Assembly: GCA_016840405.1 (NCBI GenBank)
Contig: JAEOSK010000002.1
Location: forward strand, 1 to 64,000
Direction of reading: 5' to 3'
DNA: 64,000 nt
Source of the DNA: Candidatus Hermodarchaeum yapensis
GTDB lineage: Archaea > Asgardarchaeota > Hermodarchaeia > Hermodarchaeales > Hermodarchaeaceae
Positions within the stretch are counted from its first letter, which is position 1; each line of letters starts with the position of its first letter. Shown in pieces: positions 3,044-41,392 of the stretch. The notes beneath the pieces were generated by a model that was not told the origin of the DNA, made no database searches, and saw only the letters and a list, made by a program, of their open reading frames with translations. Both the position numbers and the translations under genes were made by a program.

Positions 3044-3868
3044 TTGCCAGAGTTACCCGATATTGTATTGCTGGCTGAAAGTATGAATCAAGCGTTAGTG
3101 GGAAAAACGATACACCAAGTTCAAGTAAATCAACCTAAGGTGCTCAATAGGACAATTCCTACATTCAAGAATAACGTTCAAGGACGCACCTTCCAAAACT
3201 TTCAACAACGAGGAAAATGGCTGTTAAGTAGATTAGATAATGACTGGACGCTAGCGTTTAATTTGGGAATGGGTGGTGAACTTCGAATTCATTGGTCAGT
3301 TGAAACACCTGACCCTAACCGTGAACGGGTGGTCTTTTATTTCAACGATGGTGATCAATTGTGGGTGCATTTTTGGTGGTTTGGTCACATTCATCTCATT
3401 AAACCCGGAAAAGTGCAAGATCATCCGCAAGTTGGTATTCTTGGCGAGGAGCCTCTTTGTGACGATTTCACTGTGAATAAGCTAGCATCGATGTTGGAGG
3501 GCAAACGAGGACGAATCAAAAGTTATCTGTTAGACCAACGGTTCATTGCTGGGATCGGAAATGTTTACGTGCAAGATATCCTTTGGCATGCAGAATTGCA
3601 TCCCAATCGAAAATCGAATACCCTCCGTTCAGATGACATTAAGAAACTGCATCATGCAATTCAACATGTCTTAAAGGAAGGAATACGCTGGGGTCCAGGT
3701 CCAGGAGAACAGGATGTCTGGGGTACTCGTGGACAGTGGGGGAAACAACCTGGATGGCCACACATCGCCTATCGAACAGAAAAACCATGTCCAACCTGTC
3801 AAACCCTAGTTGAAGAACTTCGTGTCGGCAGTACCACCAGTTACATCTGCCCAAAATGCCAGAAATAG
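3044..3868 (+). CDS. mutM: Fpg/Nei family DNA glycosylase
   Basis: TTG start gives MPELPD. RGKW, LLDQRFIAGIGNVY (H2TH) and C-terminal CPTC..CPKCQ zinc finger. Confidence 0.92.
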   Translation: MPELPDIVLLAESMNQALVGKTIHQVQVNQPKVLNRTIPTFKNNVQGRTFQNFQQRGKWLLSRLDNDWTLAFNLGMGGELRIHWSVETPDPNRERVVFYFNDGDQLWVHFWWFGHIHLIKPGKVQDHPQVGILGEEPLCDDFTVNKLASMLEGKRGRIKSYLLDQRFIAGIGNVYVQDILWHAELHPNRKSNTLRSDDIKKLHHAIQHVLKEGIRWGPGPGEQDVWGTRGQWGKQPGWPHIAYRTEKPCPTCQTLVEELRVGSTTSYICPKCQK

Positions 3869-31952: not shown

Positions 31953-32333
31953 TTATGGAAGATCGGTTGAGGATGTTATTGGCCCTTTACTCGGTTTGAT
32001 AATCACTTCGGTTCCCTGGCTAGGAACCATGGACTCAATGACTGCATAAGCCCAGGGACTCGGTTGCATCAGAGCAATTCCTTCGGGTTGATTTTCCTTT
32101 AGCTGAGTTCTCACAATGACATTTCCTACCTTTGAGCTAACTTCAATGAAATTGCCCTCTTTGATACCTAATCGTTGTGCATCTCGAACTGAAATCGTAA
32201 TACGGGCCGCCACTTTTTCATATTCTTTGGATAGGGTACCTTGACCAGCTTGGACTTCGTCAACTTCAAGTGTACGCGCAAGTAATAATCGTACTTCGAG
32301 CTGTGGGTAGAGAAAATCACGTAACGCCATCAC
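31953..32333 (-). CDS. fwdD: FwdD-like molybdopterin dinucleotide-binding domain protein (divergent)
   Basis: SKEY..VAA, DAQRLGIKEG, VSSKVGNVIV and PW motifs; GRT replaced by ART. Confidence 0.75.
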   Translation of the reverse strand: MMALRDFLYPQLEVRLLLARTLEVDEVQAGQGTLSKEYEKVAARITISVRDAQRLGIKEGNFIEVSSKVGNVIVRTQLKENQPEGIALMQPSPWAYAVIESMVPSQGTEVIIKPSKGPITSSTDLP

Positions 32334-32367: not shown

Positions 32368-32519
32368 ATATTTCTTATTTTTTGGCATGGGATAAAATTT
32401 GAAAATAATAGAGCACCCTGTTGATGTTCGAATATCAGCTAAGATAACGGTACTAAGTTTCAAGAAGAGTAAGCGCTATTCCGAGAAAAAAGTTCAGTAA
32501 GGCTAAGTATTGTGTGTAA
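32368..32519. repeat. 152-bp direct repeat copy 1, ending in a 27-bp site
   Basis: Ungapped match to 33834-33985, about 80% identical by manual count. Confidence 0.92.
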
Positions 32520-32597
32520 AGAAGCATCGATTATAGATTTTGCCAATAAAATAAATTGAAGTACGAATTCGAAAAAAGGGAGAATCACAGATTTTAA

Positions 32598-33158
32598 TCA
32601 TTCATTCTTGCATGGATTCTTCGATTTTTCTCCCAATTTAAATTGTTTGATTTTATAGAACAACATGACCGCCAGTGCAACTAGGGTTGCTAATATACAA
32701 AGATTACCAAGATTCCAAAAGATGATCACGAATTCGTTAATGGTAAAACGCCATCCCATAAATCCCCAAAGGCTTGAAGACCGGAAGGAGAGTCCAGCGA
32801 AACCTCCAATTGAATACGACACAATAGCGAGAAATACTGATAAGATTATGATACCCTTTCCATATTCGGGGTTCTTCCTGTAAAGGTGGACGAAAATCAG
32901 AATGGCTAGTTGTGCGCATAGGACATAACCGCCCACCATTATGATTAACTCATACGGAATATAGGAGATGCTTAAGATGATCTGGCGCAGAATTATGGAG
33001 ATGCGAAAGATGATCTGCTGTATGTGAAAGATGATCTGCTGCGGAATCATTCCTGAAACAACTATTATCCAGAGGATGGTGACGACACAGGCTAGGATGA
33101 GTGACATCAACACTATTTTTAGGAACTTGCGTTTTGCATTATTCATTCGACTTCCCAT
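32598..33158 (-). CDS. Orphan membrane protein with short internal tandem repeats
   Basis: Hydrophobic helices; QQIIFHIQQIIFRI repeat. Confidence 0.6.
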   Translation of the reverse strand: MGSRMNNAKRKFLKIVLMSLILACVVTILWIIVVSGMIPQQIIFHIQQIIFRISIILRQIILSISYIPYELIIMVGGYVLCAQLAILIFVHLYRKNPEYGKGIIILSVFLAIVSYSIGGFAGLSFRSSSLWGFMGWRFTINEFVIIFWNLGNLCILATLVALAVMLFYKIKQFKLGEKSKNPCKNE

Positions 33159-33159
33159 T

Positions 33160-33627
33160 TTATATCACTAACATTAACACAACAAATCCATCCGAGGATG
33201 CCGTAACCATATAGTTTTGGAGGATATGAAGAGTCAGCGTCATTTCAATCAATCTACTCCTCCACATATGTTTCTCGCTGTACCGATAGGGTTCGTTGTA
33301 CTCGCCGCCCTTGGCTTCCAACCAAAGCAGGTGGTGGTTCCAGCAATAGCAAAGCCTCCATTCAAACAGATCATAACCATCTTCAATCCTATAGTAACCA
33401 AGCGTGTAGGTTGTATTCCATATGGCACTCTTAATCGGAGCGTTGTACTTGTTTTTGATAGTAGACGGAAGAATATCTTGAGTCGAAACTAATACTCGAA
33501 AAGATTGTCTTTGTACTGAAGTAAAAGAAGCAAGTAGGTGCAGTATTATAATTACCGCGAATAGGTAAAGTTGTATGATTGGTGCTGTCTTGAATACCGC
33601 TTTATTCGGGTAGACAGCAGATTGCAC
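33160..33627 (-). CDS. Orphan protein, possibly degraded
   Basis: GGGGAG RBS before GTG; abuts the next ORF; no recognisable family. Confidence 0.4.
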   Translation of the reverse strand: MQSAVYPNKAVFKTAPIIQLYLFAVIIILHLLASFTSVQRQSFRVLVSTQDILPSTIKNKYNAPIKSAIWNTTYTLGYYRIEDGYDLFEWRLCYCWNHHLLWLEAKGGEYNEPYRYSEKHMWRSRLIEMTLTLHILQNYMVTASSDGFVVLMLVI

Positions 33628-33718
33628 TTAACTCCCCTGAACATGAGAAGATAGCAATTCGAAGTACAAAAACACTCGTATTCACAGCTAGGAGCTAGAT
33701 GTTTTTCTGACGAAAAAT

Positions 33719-33745
33719 TTTAGTAAGGCTTGGATTTGTAAGTTC
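33719..33745. repeat. 27-bp site copy
   Basis: TTTAGTAAGGCTTGGATTTGTAAGTTC after an A-tract. Confidence 0.75.
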
Positions 33746-33833
33746 AAACTAATTATTAGTTGATTAATTGAATTTGCTATACATTAGATGTAAACATATA
33801 ATTACAGGAAAATATACCTCAATGTTGATTAAA

Positions 33834-33985
33834 ATATTTCTTATTTTTTGACAGAGCATAAGATATGAAAATAATAGAGTACCCTGTTGCTGTTCGAATA
33901 TCAGTTAAGAATACGGGACTATGTTTCGCGTAGAGTAAGCGCTATTCTGAGGAAAAATTTCAGTGAGCTCTGATTTTGTGAGTAT
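33834..33985. repeat. 152-bp direct repeat copy 2, ending in a 27-bp site
   Basis: Matches 32368-32519. Confidence 0.92.
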
Positions 33986-34304
33986 TAAATCTTTTACACT
34001 CACAGGTTAACATAATAGAAAAACGAATAAAATAATCAAACTCTTAGGGAATACTCATCTTTAGTAAATATATGTCTGACTGAAACTCCTGCTGGTTCCT
34101 CCTTACTAAGGTCCAACGACTTGCAGTACTCTCTATTTGTTGAGTATTTTTTTGAATCCATCACACAACTCAGGGTTGCGGAGTATAACTCTGATTGTCG
34201 CAACTGAATCTGATAGATATTTGATTTCGTAGCGATTGGTTTTACGGAAAACCCTGGAAAGCATTTCGTAGTCTGGAGTATTACGCCATAAATACATGAG
34301 AACC

Positions 34305-34336
34305 AAAAAAAGAAAAGAAGGGAGGCCAAGCCTCCC
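34305..34336 (-). terminator. Hairpin plus T-tract terminator
   Basis: GGGAGGC-CAA-GCCTCCC followed by a T-rich run on the minus strand, just after the stop at 34347. Confidence 0.7.
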
Positions 34337-34346
34337 AAAAATGCAA

Positions 34347-34835
34347 TCACTCAGTTACAATAAGGGTTTCAATAAAGACCAGCACAGGTTCGTGTCCGAT
34401 ATAAAGCTCGACTCGCCAGTCATACTCGCCGGGTGTGAAGTAGTCCGCTTCGAAAATTATATAGTAAATGAACGCGTGATAAGGTCCTGGTAACTCTGGG
34501 TCATAGTAGTCTTTATCGTTGAAAACAAAGTGTTTGTTCTTAAGATCGATTTCCGTGTCGTCAATGAATAGCTTCGCTTCAAAAGGTCGCCATTCTGAGA
34601 GAAAATTACTCGGAATACCAAAGCAGCCGTGCCATACGTTACTTTGTTTACTAGCACTAATTTCCATACTAACCCACGGATGAATACGTTGGCCATGGCT
34701 CTCTATCCAATCTACAAACTCCCACGGACCATATTGTTTTGCTTGCACGGATTGTAGACAGGGGAGCACGCAGAACACGAGCAAACACACCAGACTTACT
34801 TTTAGCAACTGTTTCTGTTTCATTGAAATTTCCAC
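34347..34835 (-). CDS. Orphan secreted protein
   Basis: Signal peptide ending VQA; own TATA and terminator. Confidence 0.7.
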   Translation of the reverse strand: MEISMKQKQLLKVSLVCLLVFCVLPCLQSVQAKQYGPWEFVDWIESHGQRIHPWVSMEISASKQSNVWHGCFGIPSNFLSEWRPFEAKLFIDDTEIDLKNKHFVFNDKDYYDPELPGPYHAFIYYIIFEADYFTPGEYDWRVELYIGHEPVLVFIETLIVTE

Positions 34836-34960
34836 TCCAATTGTACGCCACTTCGTGGCGTCGAGTTAAAGTATGATATATATCGTATATAAGAGTTAGA
34901 GGTTTTTTTCTCTACACGCCGTTTTACTTAGATAAACATTTAACCATCAGATAAAAAAAG

Positions 34961-34987
34961 CCCAGTAAGGCTTGGGTTTATGAGTAG
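34961..34987. repeat. 27-bp site copy
   Basis: CCCAGTAAGGCTTGGGTTTATGAGTAG after an A-tract; a half copy TGATTCTGTGAGTAA lies at 35042-35056. Confidence 0.75.
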
Positions 34988-35106
34988 TGTCTTTAGTGTT
35001 AGTGGCGATTTCTTCTTTCGCCACATAAGATGAGCGTTGCGTGATTCTGTGAGTAAAAGCATATCGGATGTCTTTGACCCACTTCTTTTAGTTTTTATTG
35101 GATTAT

Positions 35107-36063
35107 TCAAGGCTTCTTCCTGATAACCCCTGAGAAACCCATTAAGATTAATCCGATTAGGGAAATAAGCAAGGCTACCCCGGATAAAATGAGTGGAAGT
35201 GGATTCTCAGGCGTCATCCAGGGGTATCGAGGGCTTCCAGTGACCCCGGATAAATAGTATGTGAAGTAAAAAAATACTGCCAAGAGTATTCCCATTATGC
35301 ATACGGTGATACCACTCCACCGCATGATTGTACCAATTAGTGTAAAATCTCTTTTGAAGTAGAAATCTGACTCTATTGGTTCAAGTGAATGATAGAATCT
35401 TAGTATCCCTAAGACTGCTGCTCCAAATATGGACACAATTTGTAGTATTGGTAGAAAATAACCTAATGAGAATACAGATATTGGGAGAAAGTACCACGAA
35501 CCAAATGCAATTGTAAGGATACCTGCAATTATGAAAAAGGTAGTAGTAGTCTTTTGAATCGAATGGGATTTCGAATTAATTGGTATCTTCCTAAAAGCTA
35601 TTCCCCAGATTACCAAACCAAACCCGATTAGGAGATTAAGGGCTAAAAGCGTGTACAATTCGGAGAAAATGAAGATAATGAAAGCCGGTTGTGTAAGTAT
35701 TGTTGGCAACCAGAATTGGAAAGAAAGAAATAGTGCCGTAATTGTAATTCCTGTAAACAGGATAGAATAGCCAGTAACAAACAGGGCTATTTCAGACTGA
35801 TAAATTCTCCAATACCCCAAGAATGCGACCCCGATGAGAATTACACTTAGAAACTTCAGGAAAAAGATGACAATCCAGGTTCCTTGAGGTAACCCCATGT
35901 ATGCTCCTGCATTAAGAGAATAAGCAACAATTAGTAGGATCATTCCGATGATCCCAAGGTGAAAATAGACTCTTATCCGAGCCTCAGGCTGTTCAACAGG
36001 TTTTAGAGTTCGCTCTTTTGCACTTTCAATCGAAAATGTGATATTCGGCAAGAATTCCCGCAC
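35107..36063 (-). CDS. Orphan polytopic membrane protein
   Basis: About 8 TM helices; AT-rich. Confidence 0.7.
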   Translation of the reverse strand: MREFLPNITFSIESAKERTLKPVEQPEARIRVYFHLGIIGMILLIVAYSLNAGAYMGLPQGTWIVIFFLKFLSVILIGVAFLGYWRIYQSEIALFVTGYSILFTGITITALFLSFQFWLPTILTQPAFIIFIFSELYTLLALNLLIGFGLVIWGIAFRKIPINSKSHSIQKTTTTFFIIAGILTIAFGSWYFLPISVFSLGYFLPILQIVSIFGAAVLGILRFYHSLEPIESDFYFKRDFTLIGTIMRWSGITVCIMGILLAVFFYFTYYLSGVTGSPRYPWMTPENPLPLILSGVALLISLIGLILMGFSGVIRKKP

Positions 36064-36143
36064 CCACAGGTTTGAAGGTGTATCGAATTAATAAGCGTTT
36101 AGAAAACAATCGTGAAGATCAAATTTCCCAATTGATTAAAAAA

Positions 36144-36170
36144 ATAAGAAAGGCCTGGTTTTGTGAGTAA
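36144..36170. repeat. 27-bp site copy
   Basis: ATAAGAAAGGCCTGGTTTTGTGAGTAA after an A-tract. Confidence 0.75.
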
Positions 36171-36315
36171 AAAGGCGTTAGTTATCCCAAGTTGACTATG
36201 AATTTTTTCCTCAGAGGGTTCTTCGCCCCCTTCATTACACTAATAAGGTGAATCTGAACCAGTAATGCTTGAGGGAATTGCCGGTAACGCCCCACACTAG
36301 GAGCTGACCGTCACC

Positions 36316-38274
36316 ATGGGGATGTCATACAAGAATCGTCTCCTCTTCTGTTCACTCATACTCATCTGCTTAATTGGCGCCACAAGTCTTTTTGCACCTG
36401 ACACTTCGGTAACGAGTCGGGCGGATTGGACCTATCCTAGTGGCTTCGACCCCCATGGTGGCCATATTGACCGATTGACTATGGTAGTTTATCCTTCAAA
36501 TGCGACATCGAGAGCTCTACAGGATTTGGAGGCGAACAATATCTATGCCTACGACGACAACGTCCCCCTTTCTTCCATCGATGAACTCGTAATGCAATCC
36601 AACATTGAGGTCAATACGGAACAGGGTACCGGCTTACTCTTATTCTCATTCCGCAATTGGTTCCCCGCAAACATTTCGGGGTATCGTCGTGCACTCGCTT
36701 ATGCACTAGATAAATACGTTGTATGTGAACGGTCAACCGATGGCTATGCATTGCCTATTGATGGGGTTATCCCTCTTGCCAACTCAACTTATTCGTATGA
36801 ATCCCAGATTACCGAGTATTTCTATAGTAAAGAAATTGTGAAAGCAAATGCTTCCTTGGAAGCTTGTGGTTTCCGCGATTTGGACGGTGACGGCTGGCGT
36901 GAATACGATGCAAACAACAACAGCCTATGGGACGCTGATATAGACGTTGATGATGGCAGTTGGGCTCACGATTTCTTATGGCTTCCCATATACGTATGGC
37001 TAGGTGACGATCCTGCTTTTCATGCTGCTGAAATACTGGTTGAAGGTATGGCAGAATGTGGGCTTCATGGAGCTGTTATTGAATGGGACCCATATACATA
37101 TACTGAGTGGCCCCCTGAGAAGGCCTGGTGTTCCATGTGGAATGGACCAATTTCTGAAGAGCCAAACTTCCTTTATTTATTACATACTGGTTCTTATACC
37201 AGTCAATACTTGGACTACAGTAATCCAGAGTATGATGTAAACGTCACTCTCATGTACGGGGCTTCAACGAAACTAGAGGTTCGAGACTGGGCCTGGAACT
37301 GTTCTCAGATTCTTCTCCAGGATATGCCAATCATCCCGTGCTATAACGATGTCATCACCCAAGCTTACTGGACCGATCTGTGGGAGGGCTATGTGAATAT
37401 GCTGGGGGTCAATCGGTTGGGGAATAATCCCTGGACCTTTACCCACCTCCGCCTTAAGGATGAAGCGGGTGGTCCATTTGGTCCCTACCCCACAGAATAC
37501 CTTTGTGCCCTTACTGAGGGGATGGATTCTACGAATATTCGAGTATCCAGCAGTCGTTACGCGGATCGGGTGTTTATGAATGTGTATAGTCGTTTATGGC
37601 AGATGGATCCCCTCACCTGGGAGGAAGTCCCTGACCTCGCATACGACTGGATGATTGAACCCACTGAGCCTTCCGGGGATATCCGCTTGGGACAGAAGTT
37701 CACCTTCCACCTTTATGAGAACGTAACCTGGCATGATGGGACGCTTTTCACTGCTCAGGATGTTGCATTCAGTTTTAATCATATTTGGAAAGGGATGAGT
37801 AGTTGGGAAGGCGGTTTCTATACAACTGACCCTGTCGATAATATCTATCGCATCGACACCCCTGACGATTATACTGTTGTCATTTACACCAACCAAACTG
37901 GATACTTGGAATTTTATAAAGGCACACATCACTATATCCTGCCAAAACATATTTGGGAACAACATCTATGGAATGGAACCGACTCTCTCATGGATTGGGA
38001 GCCTTCAACACCACAGGATTTGGTAGGAACTGGCCCGTTTCGTTGGGTGAATCGAGTTCCCGGTTCGTATATCGTGTTGGATCGCCATTATAACTGGCAT
38101 TTCACTGTTGATCAGTCTCTACGAACACCAATGATTCCATGGACTCTATACATATTCATTTCTCTGGGAATTATCATTGTTCTCATCCAGATCGGGATTC
38201 TCGGATATCTCCTCAATAAGCGAAGGGCGTCTAAGACCAAACATCAATATAACCAGAAAAAGGGTGACGCCTGA
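36316..38274 (+). CDS. ABC peptide/nickel-type substrate-binding protein (family 5), C-terminally anchored
   Basis: RRALAYALDK, VPDLAYDW, TWHDGT.FTAQDVAFS and VGTGPF motifs. Confidence 0.88.
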   Translation: MGMSYKNRLLFCSLILICLIGATSLFAPDTSVTSRADWTYPSGFDPHGGHIDRLTMVVYPSNATSRALQDLEANNIYAYDDNVPLSSIDELVMQSNIEVNTEQGTGLLLFSFRNWFPANISGYRRALAYALDKYVVCERSTDGYALPIDGVIPLANSTYSYESQITEYFYSKEIVKANASLEACGFRDLDGDGWREYDANNNSLWDADIDVDDGSWAHDFLWLPIYVWLGDDPAFHAAEILVEGMAECGLHGAVIEWDPYTYTEWPPEKAWCSMWNGPISEEPNFLYLLHTGSYTSQYLDYSNPEYDVNVTLMYGASTKLEVRDWAWNCSQILLQDMPIIPCYNDVITQAYWTDLWEGYVNMLGVNRLGNNPWTFTHLRLKDEAGGPFGPYPTEYLCALTEGMDSTNIRVSSSRYADRVFMNVYSRLWQMDPLTWEEVPDLAYDWMIEPTEPSGDIRLGQKFTFHLYENVTWHDGTLFTAQDVAFSFNHIWKGMSSWEGGFYTTDPVDNIYRIDTPDDYTVVIYTNQTGYLEFYKGTHHYILPKHIWEQHLWNGTDSLMDWEPSTPQDLVGTGPFRWVNRVPGSYIVLDRHYNWHFTVDQSLRTPMIPWTLYIFISLGIIIVLIQIGILGYLLNKRRASKTKHQYNQKKGDA

Positions 38275-38275
38275 G

Positions 38276-40159
38276 ATGAGACACAAACCAAGAATAACCC
38301 TTTGGGTAGGTGTGGTTTTTTTTTGTATACTCATCTTCATTCAGGGCTGTTCCTCCCTCTCCTCACAACCCATTCCATCAAAGACGTGGACCTATCCCGA
38401 CGGTTATGACCCCCACGGCGGATACCTGGACCGGGTGACCTTCGTCGTCTATCCCCCCGAAGACGAACAACTGGGGCTCCAAGCCCTTCAGGCGAACATT
38501 ATCTATGCGTGGGACGAGCATGTCTCTGCCGAGAACATTACCGAGCTTGAAGCGGCACCCGGTGTGGAGGTTGCCACTGAACCCGGGGATTTGTATCGCA
38601 TGTTTGCGCTTGACTGTGGAACATTCCCCATGAATATTACCGGATACCGGCGAGCTATTGCTTTTGCCCTAGATAAATATGCTGTCGTTCAGGGGTCAAC
38701 AGATGGCCTTGGATTACCCCAAGATTGTGCAATTCCACGCGCTCTGACCAATTGGACCTATGAAAGTCAGCTCACTGAAACCTACTATGCACAAGATATC
38801 GTCAAAGCTAACGCCTCCTTGGAGGCAGCAGGTTTCCGAGACCTCACGAGTGACGGCTGGCGAGACTACGATGCGGATTTGAGTGGGACACTAACCTCTG
38901 GCGATAAGAATAGTCATGAAGTCGCGATCAGTTTTTTATATACAGGACATATTCCCTTGACCAATGCTATCACATTGGCAATAGAAGGATTGGCTAAGTG
39001 TGGTATTCGTGCTTATACCGTCCCTTGGGACCCTTACGATCCTATTGGACGATATTATGATGTAGGGACTCATACAATCAATCTTAAGGAATCCGGGGAT
39101 CTGTTTTTGTTGTATCACTTTTTCCATAGTTCCACAGGTGCCAACGAATGGTATTTTGGAGGCTGGAGGAACGACACTTACAATCAATACGCTGAGAACC
39201 TGATGGCTGCACGAACCAAAGAGGAGGTTCAGTACTGGACCTGGAAATGTCAGGAGATTCTTTGGTATGAACAGCCCATGATTGTCTGCTACAACGACGT
39301 CTTTACCAATGCTTATCGAACGGACATCTGGGAAGACTACATCAACATGCAAGGTCGGAACCGGATCGGGAACGGCTACAGCCTCGTGCACATCAAGCTC
39401 AAGGAAGAAGCAGGCGGTCCCTTCGGGTGTTTCCCTACCGAGTATATCATGAGCCTGAACGAAGGGCTAGATACGACCAACTATCTACGGAGCAATTCAG
39501 AATACACAAAAACGGTATTCCAGCTCGTCTACGAGAGACTTTGGACCTACTCACCCTATGATTGGACCCCCCAGCCGTCACTCGCCTATGCTTGGGAAAC
39601 GGAAGCTACTGTTGCCTCCGGGGATATCCAAGAGGGGGAGAAGTACACTTTCCATCTCTTTGAGAATGCCACCTGGCACGATGGAACTCCGGTCACTGCC
39701 GATGATGTGGCATTTAGTGTGTCACTGGGATTACAAGATCCGTACAACGCGGAAAACTATCAACACGTTTACAAGACCAACATTGTCGATAACATGACGA
39801 TTGAAATCTTCACCAACGCAACGGGCTTCTTCGAGTGGACACGGGCCACGGGTTTTACCGTCTATCCCGCACACATCTGGTCACTCCCATCTAGCATCTT
39901 CTCGTGGGTTCCAACCGTGCCTGAACTGGTGGGGTCCGGACCCTACATCTTCGCTGCCTATGTCCAAGGGCAATATGTGGTGTTGGACCGCAATCCTGAG
40001 TGGCACTTTGCTGTATCACAACCTCCACGCACTCCATGTCCTGTAACAGTTGATTGCTTTTGGTGTTATCCTTTGCTCTTGGGGATCATCATTATTCAAG
40101 TTTGCATCTTAGTGTATTTGGTTAATCGGCGTCGCAGTAGGGACGCTTCCAAGAAATGA
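38276..40159 (+). CDS. ABC substrate-binding protein (family 5), tandem paralog
   Basis: ATG at 38276; same motifs and domain order as the upstream gene. Confidence 0.88.
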   Translation: MRHKPRITLWVGVVFFCILIFIQGCSSLSSQPIPSKTWTYPDGYDPHGGYLDRVTFVVYPPEDEQLGLQALQANIIYAWDEHVSAENITELEAAPGVEVATEPGDLYRMFALDCGTFPMNITGYRRAIAFALDKYAVVQGSTDGLGLPQDCAIPRALTNWTYESQLTETYYAQDIVKANASLEAAGFRDLTSDGWRDYDADLSGTLTSGDKNSHEVAISFLYTGHIPLTNAITLAIEGLAKCGIRAYTVPWDPYDPIGRYYDVGTHTINLKESGDLFLLYHFFHSSTGANEWYFGGWRNDTYNQYAENLMAARTKEEVQYWTWKCQEILWYEQPMIVCYNDVFTNAYRTDIWEDYINMQGRNRIGNGYSLVHIKLKEEAGGPFGCFPTEYIMSLNEGLDTTNYLRSNSEYTKTVFQLVYERLWTYSPYDWTPQPSLAYAWETEATVASGDIQEGEKYTFHLFENATWHDGTPVTADDVAFSVSLGLQDPYNAENYQHVYKTNIVDNMTIEIFTNATGFFEWTRATGFTVYPAHIWSLPSSIFSWVPTVPELVGSGPYIFAAYVQGQYVVLDRNPEWHFAVSQPPRTPCPVTVDCFWCYPLLLGIIIIQVCILVYLVNRRRSRDASKK

Positions 40160-40194
40160 CAAATCTAAACTTGTGTTTAATGGGAGTCGAGAGA

Positions 40195-40359
40195 TTATTT
40201 TAATTTATTGCGGTGGGGTTCGGCGTAAAAGTTCATGACGCAGCAGAAAGGGTGAAAGGTTTCAGAATGGGTAACGCCTTCGGGGATGAAATAGGATTTC
40301 CCGGGATTCAACTCATGGGTCATGCCACTGATGGTGAGTGTAAAGGAGCCTTCGACGGT
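40195..40359 (-). pseudogene. Cupin-domain remnant
   Basis: My translation TVEGSFTLTISGMTHELNPGKSYFIPEGVTHS matches cupin motif 2; an in-frame TGA lies directly upstream. Confidence 0.65.
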
Positions 40360-40545
40360 TCACGGGGCCCCCAGCTCACTTGCTGGAATCAGTATCAACG
40401 TCGTGTCTGGAAGAACGGTTAAGGAGAAAGAATTCAATTTTATTTATGGGATTGGAAAAGAGTGATGAACCGTACTGATAACGTGGTGATCGCACTGTTC
40501 ATTTCTGGCGTGTGTGTTGCGGTGGAGAATCACCATCAAACGGCT

Positions 40546-40618
40546 GAAAATATTCCTCAGGTGCAAGAATATACCTCAGGAAAATATACCTGAGTGGTTA
40601 TTGAAATGTTTCTTATTT
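40546..40618. promoter_or_regulatory. Repeated operator-like motif CTCAGG-AAAATATA-CCTGAG
   Basis: Three tandem AATAT(A/T)CCT(C/G)AG units; 40577-40618 resembles 33805-33846. Confidence 0.55.
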
Positions 40619-40705: not shown

Positions 40706-41392
40706 GTGACTTATGCGTACGCCTATCGGCCCTTGAGGCCGTATATGACATATACGCTCATTCTCCTTAATACCTTCATTCATCTCATGCAATACGTCAT
40801 ACCAATGATAACCACAGTCTTTACCATGGTTCCCGCTAATATCATTGTGGGTCAAGCACTCATCACGTTGGTAACGAGTACTTTCCTTCATGCCGATTTT
40901 TTCCATCTTTTTATTAACATGTACTTTCTCTTCATCTTCGGAACCGTGGTCGAGGGAGAAATGCATCCTTTCTCCTACTTTGCTCTCTATCTCGTAGCCG
41001 GAATCTTCGGAAGCCTCGGACACGTCCTCATTACTGCAACTTTGGGAGTTATCTTTGATCCAATGGGTATTGGTATTGGTATTCCCGCTCTCGGTGCCTC
41101 TGGTGCCATTTTTGGTGTCATGGCGGCGTACGCCTACCTCCTCCCACGTCGTCCTCTTGGGGTCTATAGGGATGGTGGACGAACCACAGCCGCCTGGAGT
41201 ATTATCATCATCTATTTCTTCCTTGAACTCTTCCAGATGTTTCTCTCATTCGGAAGTGGCGTAGCCCATGGAGCTCATGTTTTCGGTTTTGTTGGGGGAT
41301 TCATCTTCGCTCTTTTCTATCGGTTTATTCGCATTCAAATGAATAAACGGAGACCTGAAGTCCAATATGATCCCTACGAATACTATGTGTGA
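40706..41392 (+). CDS. Rhomboid intramembrane serine protease
   Basis: FLHADFFHLFINM, GASGAIFG and AHGAHVFG motifs. Confidence 0.93.
   Translation: MTYAYAYRPLRPYMTYTLILLNTFIHLMQYVIPMITTVFTMVPANIIVGQALITLVTSTFLHADFFHLFINMYFLFIFGTVVEGEMHPFSYFALYLVAGIFGSLGHVLITATLGVIFDPMGIGIGIPALGASGAIFGVMAAYAYLLPRRPLGVYRDGGRTTAAWSIIIIYFFLELFQMFLSFGSGVAHGAHVFGFVGGFIFALFYRFIRIQMNKRRPEVQYDPYEYYV

Follow-up and report, generated by a model that had tools for sequence, protein, structure and literature searches.

Sedentary chromosomal integrons and clusters of attC sites lacking integron-integrases (CALINs), archaeal ones included (Ghaly et al. 2022, PMC9668308), hold accessory cassettes in tandem between same-direction sites, with one fixed primary site at one end, satellite clusters without integrase and an order that varies among relatives. 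Acinetobacter pdif modules (PMC9455709) and arrays of integrative mobile elements exploiting Xer (IMEX) at dif likewise consist of site-bounded accessory modules, one arm of the site being conserved and one variable, and archaeal XerA/dif systems combine a single Xer with a neighbouring 11-6-11 palindrome (Cortez et al. 2010, PMC2958812; PMC8371274). Here we describe a cassette array that shares features with each of these. It lies in a 64,000-nucleotide stretch of Candidatus Hermodarchaeum yapensis (GenBank assembly GCA_016840405.1, contig JAEOSK010000002.1, positions 1 to 64,000; hereafter the window), where copies of one site separate cassettes between a FwdD-like gene and a rhomboid gene. 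We consider it highly probable that the site belongs to a site-specific, genus-wide gene-cassette system, which is integron-like in its working but is not an integron.

Six copies of the site, all on one strand, occur in the window (Table 1) at successive spacings of 1226, 240, 1002, 69 and 1114 bp, and an A-tract precedes the full copies. A first-pass annotation, made from the letters alone, had reported these positions, the common orientation, the spacings and the A-tract, and all were reproduced. Its 27-bp unit does recur, but the length was underestimated: the site spans ~46 bp and comprises a 19-bp left arm, the 7-bp core GTGAGTA and a ~20-bp right arm, with the A-tract in addition. Site alignment placed the near-invariant stretch at positions 17–29, centred on the core, and showed that a semi-conserved right arm runs on past the 27-mer to about position 46. 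The supposed half copy ending at 35056 is a full site carrying a second, recurrent left-arm type; among 99 sites, left arms are of type A in 66, type B in 16 (including this one) and type D in 8, and by far most of 83 sites have the core GTGAGTA. Copies in the window are worn, with 4–7 differences to the genus consensus over 28 positions (mean elsewhere, 3.2), and only one of five copies lies within three mismatches of the consensus first proposed. A position weight matrix made from the five full window copies was scanned against the 2.7-Mb genome and a shuffled version of it. Above 20 bits, it gave 9 matches in the genome versus 1 in the shuffle, and all 9 fall in the window or on contig C63; the genome thus holds two clusters only. 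Each cassette consists of core, right arm, cargo (0 to about 5 kb), A-tract and left arm, with genes in either direction that have their own upstream regions; multi-gene blocks are common, and intervals between sites range from 69 bp to about 5 kb.

Crossover inside the near-invariant core, at positions 19–26, adds, removes and reorders cassettes. Flank comparison among 69 sites yielded 36 pairs sharing the distal left flank only, 54 the right only and 5 both, and 83 sites fall into 47 families on the left and 49 on the right, which meet in 77 different junctions. Same-right pairs agree at 0.7–0.96 from position 30 on, where same-left pairs drop to background. The crossover is delimited by alleles that travel with one side: the right flank carries along the minor alleles of positions 27 and 28 (22/49 and 25/37 versus 3/47 and 5/35), whereas that of position 14 goes with the left flank (15/24 versus 0/38) and the C at position 18 of type B remains with its left arm. 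An attI1-like crossover at G-TT just before the motif was rejected, as positions 1–14 travel with the left flank. Polarity is strict: of the 64 cassette matches between different arrays, all 64 lie the same way round with respect to the site, and 14 run end to end. At the strain level, the sister strain L230 is 96.8% identical to C63 with 7.2 kb extra, and both homology blocks end in positions 15–29 of one site. These data establish the modular structure, the crossover window, the polarity and the gain and loss of cassettes between strains. Relatives differ in the genes held between sites, their breakpoints lie within the motif, and conserved core genes are not marked by it; these outcomes support the first-pass proposal of a site-specific gene-capture system of a non-attC, non-dif type.

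The second and larger cluster, on C63, is an array anchored at the start codon of htrA. Its anchoring site carries the type D left arm, the inverted complement of the core, giving a 7-bp box, a 5-bp spacer and a 7-bp box; this 7-5-7 geometry resembles an attI simple site. There is one type D copy per genome; in all assemblies that include the region, it sits right at the start codon of htrA, its core less than 30 bp away. The anchored site was found in 7 genomes next to 4 different right arms, as befits a fixed primary insertion site at one end, and has no integrase gene beside it. The htrA arrays of relatives hold overlapping gene sets in differing order, with cargo that includes alcohol dehydrogenase, ACR3 with ArsR (arsenite efflux), GNAT, carboxylesterase, SnoaL pairs, hydrolases and TPR proteins. 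Judged from position, every new first cassette would replace the sequence where the htrA promoter is expected. A conserved 524-aa gene near htrA was considered as the recombinase and discarded, showing no recombinase likeness in Atlas.

The window holds a satellite, partly decayed array supplied from the same cassette pool as the main array, since its cassette 35030-36170 is 78.6% identical in nucleotides, end to end, to one in the htrA array of L230, and its 186-aa gene has a homologue in another array. Sites distant from htrA also occur in genomes G006 and G014. Ten relatives from the genus have fwdD directly next to the rhomboid gene and lack a site there, and two further relatives have other sequence in that place, likewise without the site. 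The gap measures 8.2 kb in the window and contains two tandem units, each with a 125-bp left end (85% identical between the units) and a similar right end (33805-33846 versus 40577-40618, 86% identical), and a 13-bp direct repeat recurs at 32368, 33834 and 40606. The site would have been carried into this intergenic region inside a larger insertion, of which two alleles (32368-33846 and 33834-40618) may now stand in tandem, and would then have taken up cassettes from the main-array pool. Strain contigs from run X9 carry simpler versions of the locus: one joins 33791 to 40570, leaving unit 1 only, and another joins 32498 to 36155 inside the motif, leaving one site and zero cassettes, although the five letters at this joint match the 33959 copy, so that it may equally be unit 2 without cassettes. 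Joints with a side of fewer than 30 letters (33973 to 36159) were left out of the counts, and run shares below 0.2 were disregarded as a guide to habitat. An assembly chimera at 33834 was rejected, three other assemblies being 100% identical across it, although these may stem from the same population. The array had been described as bounded by core genes on both sides. This holds on the left, whereas on the right the insertion extends to near 40618 and takes in the two solute-binding protein genes, which are missing at the locus in every relative examined.

Matches to the cassette site came from a single Hermodarchaeota genus. When up to three mismatches are allowed, 10 of its 15 genomes carry the site, always in one-strand clusters, against 0 of the other 26 Asgard genomes searched; later loci add two genomes (12/15). 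The genus genomes are 72–91% complete, and blanks were not taken as absences. Exact type D patterns occur in 5 of 251 Asgard genomes, each of them a member of this genus. Genomes with the cassette-site pattern bear the label Hermodarchaeota or Promethearchaeota. When one genome per GTDB species was scanned for exact matches to the site, only contigs of these same genomes came up; viral contigs gave no exact match to the site, and Rfam gave no match in three arrays. No published description of the system was found in a search whose coverage excluded subscription journals.

Compared with integrons and CALINs (criteria in PMC9668308), the arrays agree in their direct sites, their reordering among relatives and their fixed primary site, and differ in having no attC hairpin, no GTTRRRY/RYYYAAC pair and no IntI. 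The arms are sequence-conserved double-strand motifs, and the cargo is multi-gene, runs in both directions and has long upstream regions; mostly single, co-oriented open reading frame (ORF) cassettes are a feature of this window and not of the arrays overall. The attC hairpin was tested in array form and in circle form without signal: the core complement is not enriched upstream, and own-circle junctions fold or pair no better than random arm pairs. Fold, dyad and profile tests together bear out the earlier statement that the site is neither attC nor a symmetric dif. With respect to pdif and IMEX, the main array does lie 6–16 kb from a candidate dif site, and the modules (alcohol dehydrogenase, arsenite efflux with ArsR, GNAT, esterases) are comparable. 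The cassette site, in contrast, has no 11-6-11 inverted repeat with variable spacer; its centre is invariant and not free, and the arrays are chromosomal. All cassette sites face one way, whereas pdif sites alternate in orientation. CRISPR arrays and casposons do not fit, with no Cas1 found and intervals from 69 bp up to about 5 kb.

As a working model, a site-specific recombinase acting in trans would exchange strands in the core; cassettes would be excised as circles between two direct sites and inserted at another core, preferably the htrA site, which would have the role that attI plays in integrons. A tyrosine recombinase is the most likely family, given the strict polarity and the invariance of the 7-bp core. 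There is roughly an even chance that the enzyme is missing from the bins or went unrecognised. We tentatively entertain an independently evolved second integron-like system, with htrA as primary site, hairpin-free double-strand sites and a recombinase distinct from IntI and Xer alike that falls outside current families. If so, insertions at the primary site would also swap the htrA promoter region, coupling gene capture to a stress protease.

The first-pass annotation supposed a recombinase encoded elsewhere, which may hold, and proposed looking for one constantly beside a copy; none adjoins any array examined. The host genome, 86% complete, encodes two tyrosine recombinases, an Xer (C16:6331-7275), which passes the XerA cut-off NF040815 (274 versus 220), and a divergent one on a 5-kb contig; both fall far under the IntI cut-off TIGR02249 (152.8 and 64.4 versus 265). 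That the lineage's Xer is the enzyme is conceivable and on the doubtful side, and the same applies to a specific form of the cassette-system reading, in which the chromosomal Xer drives the arrays as pdif/IMEX-like modules via a degenerate version of its own site. This Xer is intact and is the sole conserved tyrosine recombinase, present in 12 of 15 genus genomes (E <1e-37); like the site, it was not found in the 4 sister-genus genomes searched, and in five genomes it lies 10–19 kb from htrA on the same contig. Its catalytic residues R-K-H-R-H-Y are conserved with no insertion relative to XerC, and its recognition helix (motif as in PMC2958812) has a hydrophobic residue in place of the basic one of XerA, XerC and XerD. 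It belongs to a tight Hermodarchaeota clade (33 proteins at ≥59%), and, unlike in archaeal XerA/dif systems, its next relatives outside are bacterial XerC (40–46%).

The same Xer has its own candidate target. An inverted-repeat search near it disclosed an 11-6-11 palindrome with a free 6-bp spacer, separate from the cassette site, located on C16 at 17-44 and 3178-3205 and nowhere else in the genome. It was matched in 13 of 15 genus genomes, with 1–2 good copies each, 0.7–9 kb from the Xer gene, and it also accompanies three distant Xer homologues, at loci where no cassette site is seen. The palindrome is probably this Xer's target, the dif site of a single-recombinase system, and it fits the published archaeal dif architecture (PMC8371274), a match that holds for this palindrome and not for the cassette site. 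The best fit of the dif-arm profile does fall on the core, but it scores −10 bits on the cassette site versus +16 on its own palindrome, and arm polarity is opposite (T-run, core, A-run versus A-run, spacer, T-run). The sole dif-resembling 11-6-11 register would set the crossover right of position 29, against the right-flank travel of positions 27–28. In G011, two dif-like copies flank a GNAT gene that three genomes carry as cassette cargo, a point in favour of a link between Xer and the cassettes. As a separate observation, two palindrome copies bracket variable genes in G000 and G011 in a dif-module-like manner, and in G012 a phage-like HNH endonuclease gene (L076:17163-17777) adjoins the dif candidate, with homologues in the same place in G001 and G003. 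A first dif candidate, the 11-6-11-like palindrome at C33:41724 (L170), was discarded, having several intergenic copies per genome, one of them upstream of a TrmB-like regulator gene; a similar palindrome lies at C68:2093, and this type is probably a transcription-factor operator. A second SAM-like match, on C38, was dismissed as recombinase for want of a catalytic domain match. The divergent integrase (L004:4215-5186, contig C53) overlaps a tRNA-like sequence and has no motif beside it; the first 150 bp of C53 match C63:3188-3336 in the htrA array (93%), and the contig may be mis-binned. Proviral-type integrases and IS110 genes of the family likewise have no motif beside them.

A regulatory repeat (terminator or operator), with modules shuffled by homologous or microhomology recombination and no dedicated enzyme, is improbable. 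The A-tract reads as a T-tract on the strand of most cargo genes (56 of 95 cassette-associated genes, the other 39 lying on the opposite strand), yet promoter and terminator scans stayed at chance level and neighbouring genes face both ways at 24–670 bp. Just upstream of the htrA start codon, the anchored copy forms an operator-like palindrome, but the motif is absent from the remaining genome. Near identity over 28 bp could allow deletion between direct repeats; crossovers between different left-arm types, however, share only about 10 bp, and cassettes are inserted, not merely deleted (L230 versus C63). Non-autonomous cut-and-paste or IS110-type elements, with the core as target-site duplication and the arms as element ends, are a very remote explanation: the core-element-core geometry is compatible with a 7–9-bp duplication and the genome has one IS110 gene, but the arms do not form inverted repeats, only the array copies of the 8-bp core are used out of 91 genome-wide, IS110 is sporadic (3/19 genomes) on a contig without any piece of the motif, and DDE_Tnp_1 and rve gave zero matches.

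Several results weigh against a dedicated cassette system. No enzyme is linked to the site, and the 86%-complete genome yielded no serine recombinase or HUH transposase (PF00239, PF07508, PF01797) and no Cas1, reverse transcriptase or member of the two DDE families. Dyad symmetry of the site around any centre reaches at best 4.5 of 12 pairs versus 3.2 expected, a value unusual among targets of tyrosine recombinases. As the genomes are related, their site pairs are not independent, so the counts given above serve as description and not as a test. The strain joints come from single contigs at depth 3–5 aligned at 85% likeness, and no circular cassette was demonstrated in strain contigs: in two runs, a backward-going joint links a type B arm with the right flank of the htrA site on C63, which may be either a circle or another allele.

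Since integron finders rely on attC hairpins and IntI, a gene-cassette system of this kind is invisible to them, and archaeal cassette-based gene capture may be undercounted. The system offers a concrete route by which an Asgard lineage could acquire and reshuffle accessory genes such as arsenite efflux, dehydrogenases, esterases and TPR proteins. The site, the primary site, the candidate enzyme and its separate dif-like target are specified in enough detail to assay recombination directly, and a novel pairing of site and recombinase could find use as a genetic tool. To this picture, the window contributes a satellite array where relatives have none, alleles at the level of strains, a cassette common with the main array, and a separate dif candidate that counts against Xer as the enzyme.

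Table 1. Features of the window between the FwdD-like gene and the rhomboid gene
Feature	Position	Strand	Remarks
FwdD-like core gene, left flank	31953..32333	-	in relatives directly adjoins the rhomboid gene
Left end of island unit 1	32368..32492	+	opens with 13-bp direct repeat; 85% copy at 33834-33958 is unit 2 left end
Cassette site 1	32493..32538	+	type A left arm; core 32512-32518, one mismatch
Predicted membrane protein, 186 aa, cargo	32598..33158	-	37% identical homologue in genome G005 array
Orphan ORF, 155 aa	33160..33627	-	
Cassette site 2	33719..33764	+	type A, worn; core 33738-33744
Tandem-unit junction	33765..33958	+	unit 1 right end, shared 13-bp repeat 33834-33846, unit 2 left end
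Cassette site 3	33959..34004	+	core 33978-33984
Short, doubtful ORF	34036-34350	-	
Possible decayed site, tentative	34045..34085	+	86 bp past site 3; core 5/7 at 34064-34070
Secreted-type orphan, 158-162 aa	34347-34835	-	
Cassette site 4	34961..35006	+	type A, worn
Cassette site 5	35030..35075	+	type B left arm; intact core 35049-35055 and right arm
Multi-pass membrane protein, 318 aa	35107..36063	-	cargo of cassette 35030-36170
Cassette site 6, final site of array	36144..36189	+	core 36163-36169
Two SBP_bac_5 solute-binding protein genes	36316..40159	+	inside unit 2, beyond final site
Right end of whole insertion	40577..40618	+	closes with 13-bp repeat 40606-40618, ahead of rhomboid gene
Rhomboid gene, right flank	40706-41392		

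Within the window array, the long intervals hold minus-strand, AT-rich orphan genes as first described (GC content 39–40% versus 45% for the genome), and no Pfam family scored above its cut-off for these cargo genes. A stretch of 450 bp (33161-33610), most of the 155-aa ORF, is missing in strain contigs of all four runs compared, with indel ends off the motif. The right arm of site 3 is of the type found after the htrA-anchored site in several genomes, and window 33973-34071 is 92% identical to C63:5948-6046. At the possible decayed site, a loose contig end at 34065 (run X9) runs on as core and common right arm. Sites 4 and 5 enclose a recurrent 69-bp unit without a gene.

Some minor observations concern the island and its repeats. 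The island right end (33805-33846, 40577-40618) recurs once more, at C57:36116-36180, with no cassette site there, a hint of a second mobile layer with an AT-rich insertion target of 13 bp. Just past the final site, 36199-36215 repeats 17 bp of the site 3 left flank (33946-33962) in inverted form (94%). The 186-aa gene contains a 21-bp tandem repeat (window 32968-33041), which is one unit shorter in a contig of run X6. The 69-bp unit and a gene-less ~100-bp unit (L001:5948-6476, window 33973-34071) recur as mini-cassettes in many arrays, and the ~100-bp mini-cassette holds a TATA-like element directed at htrA.

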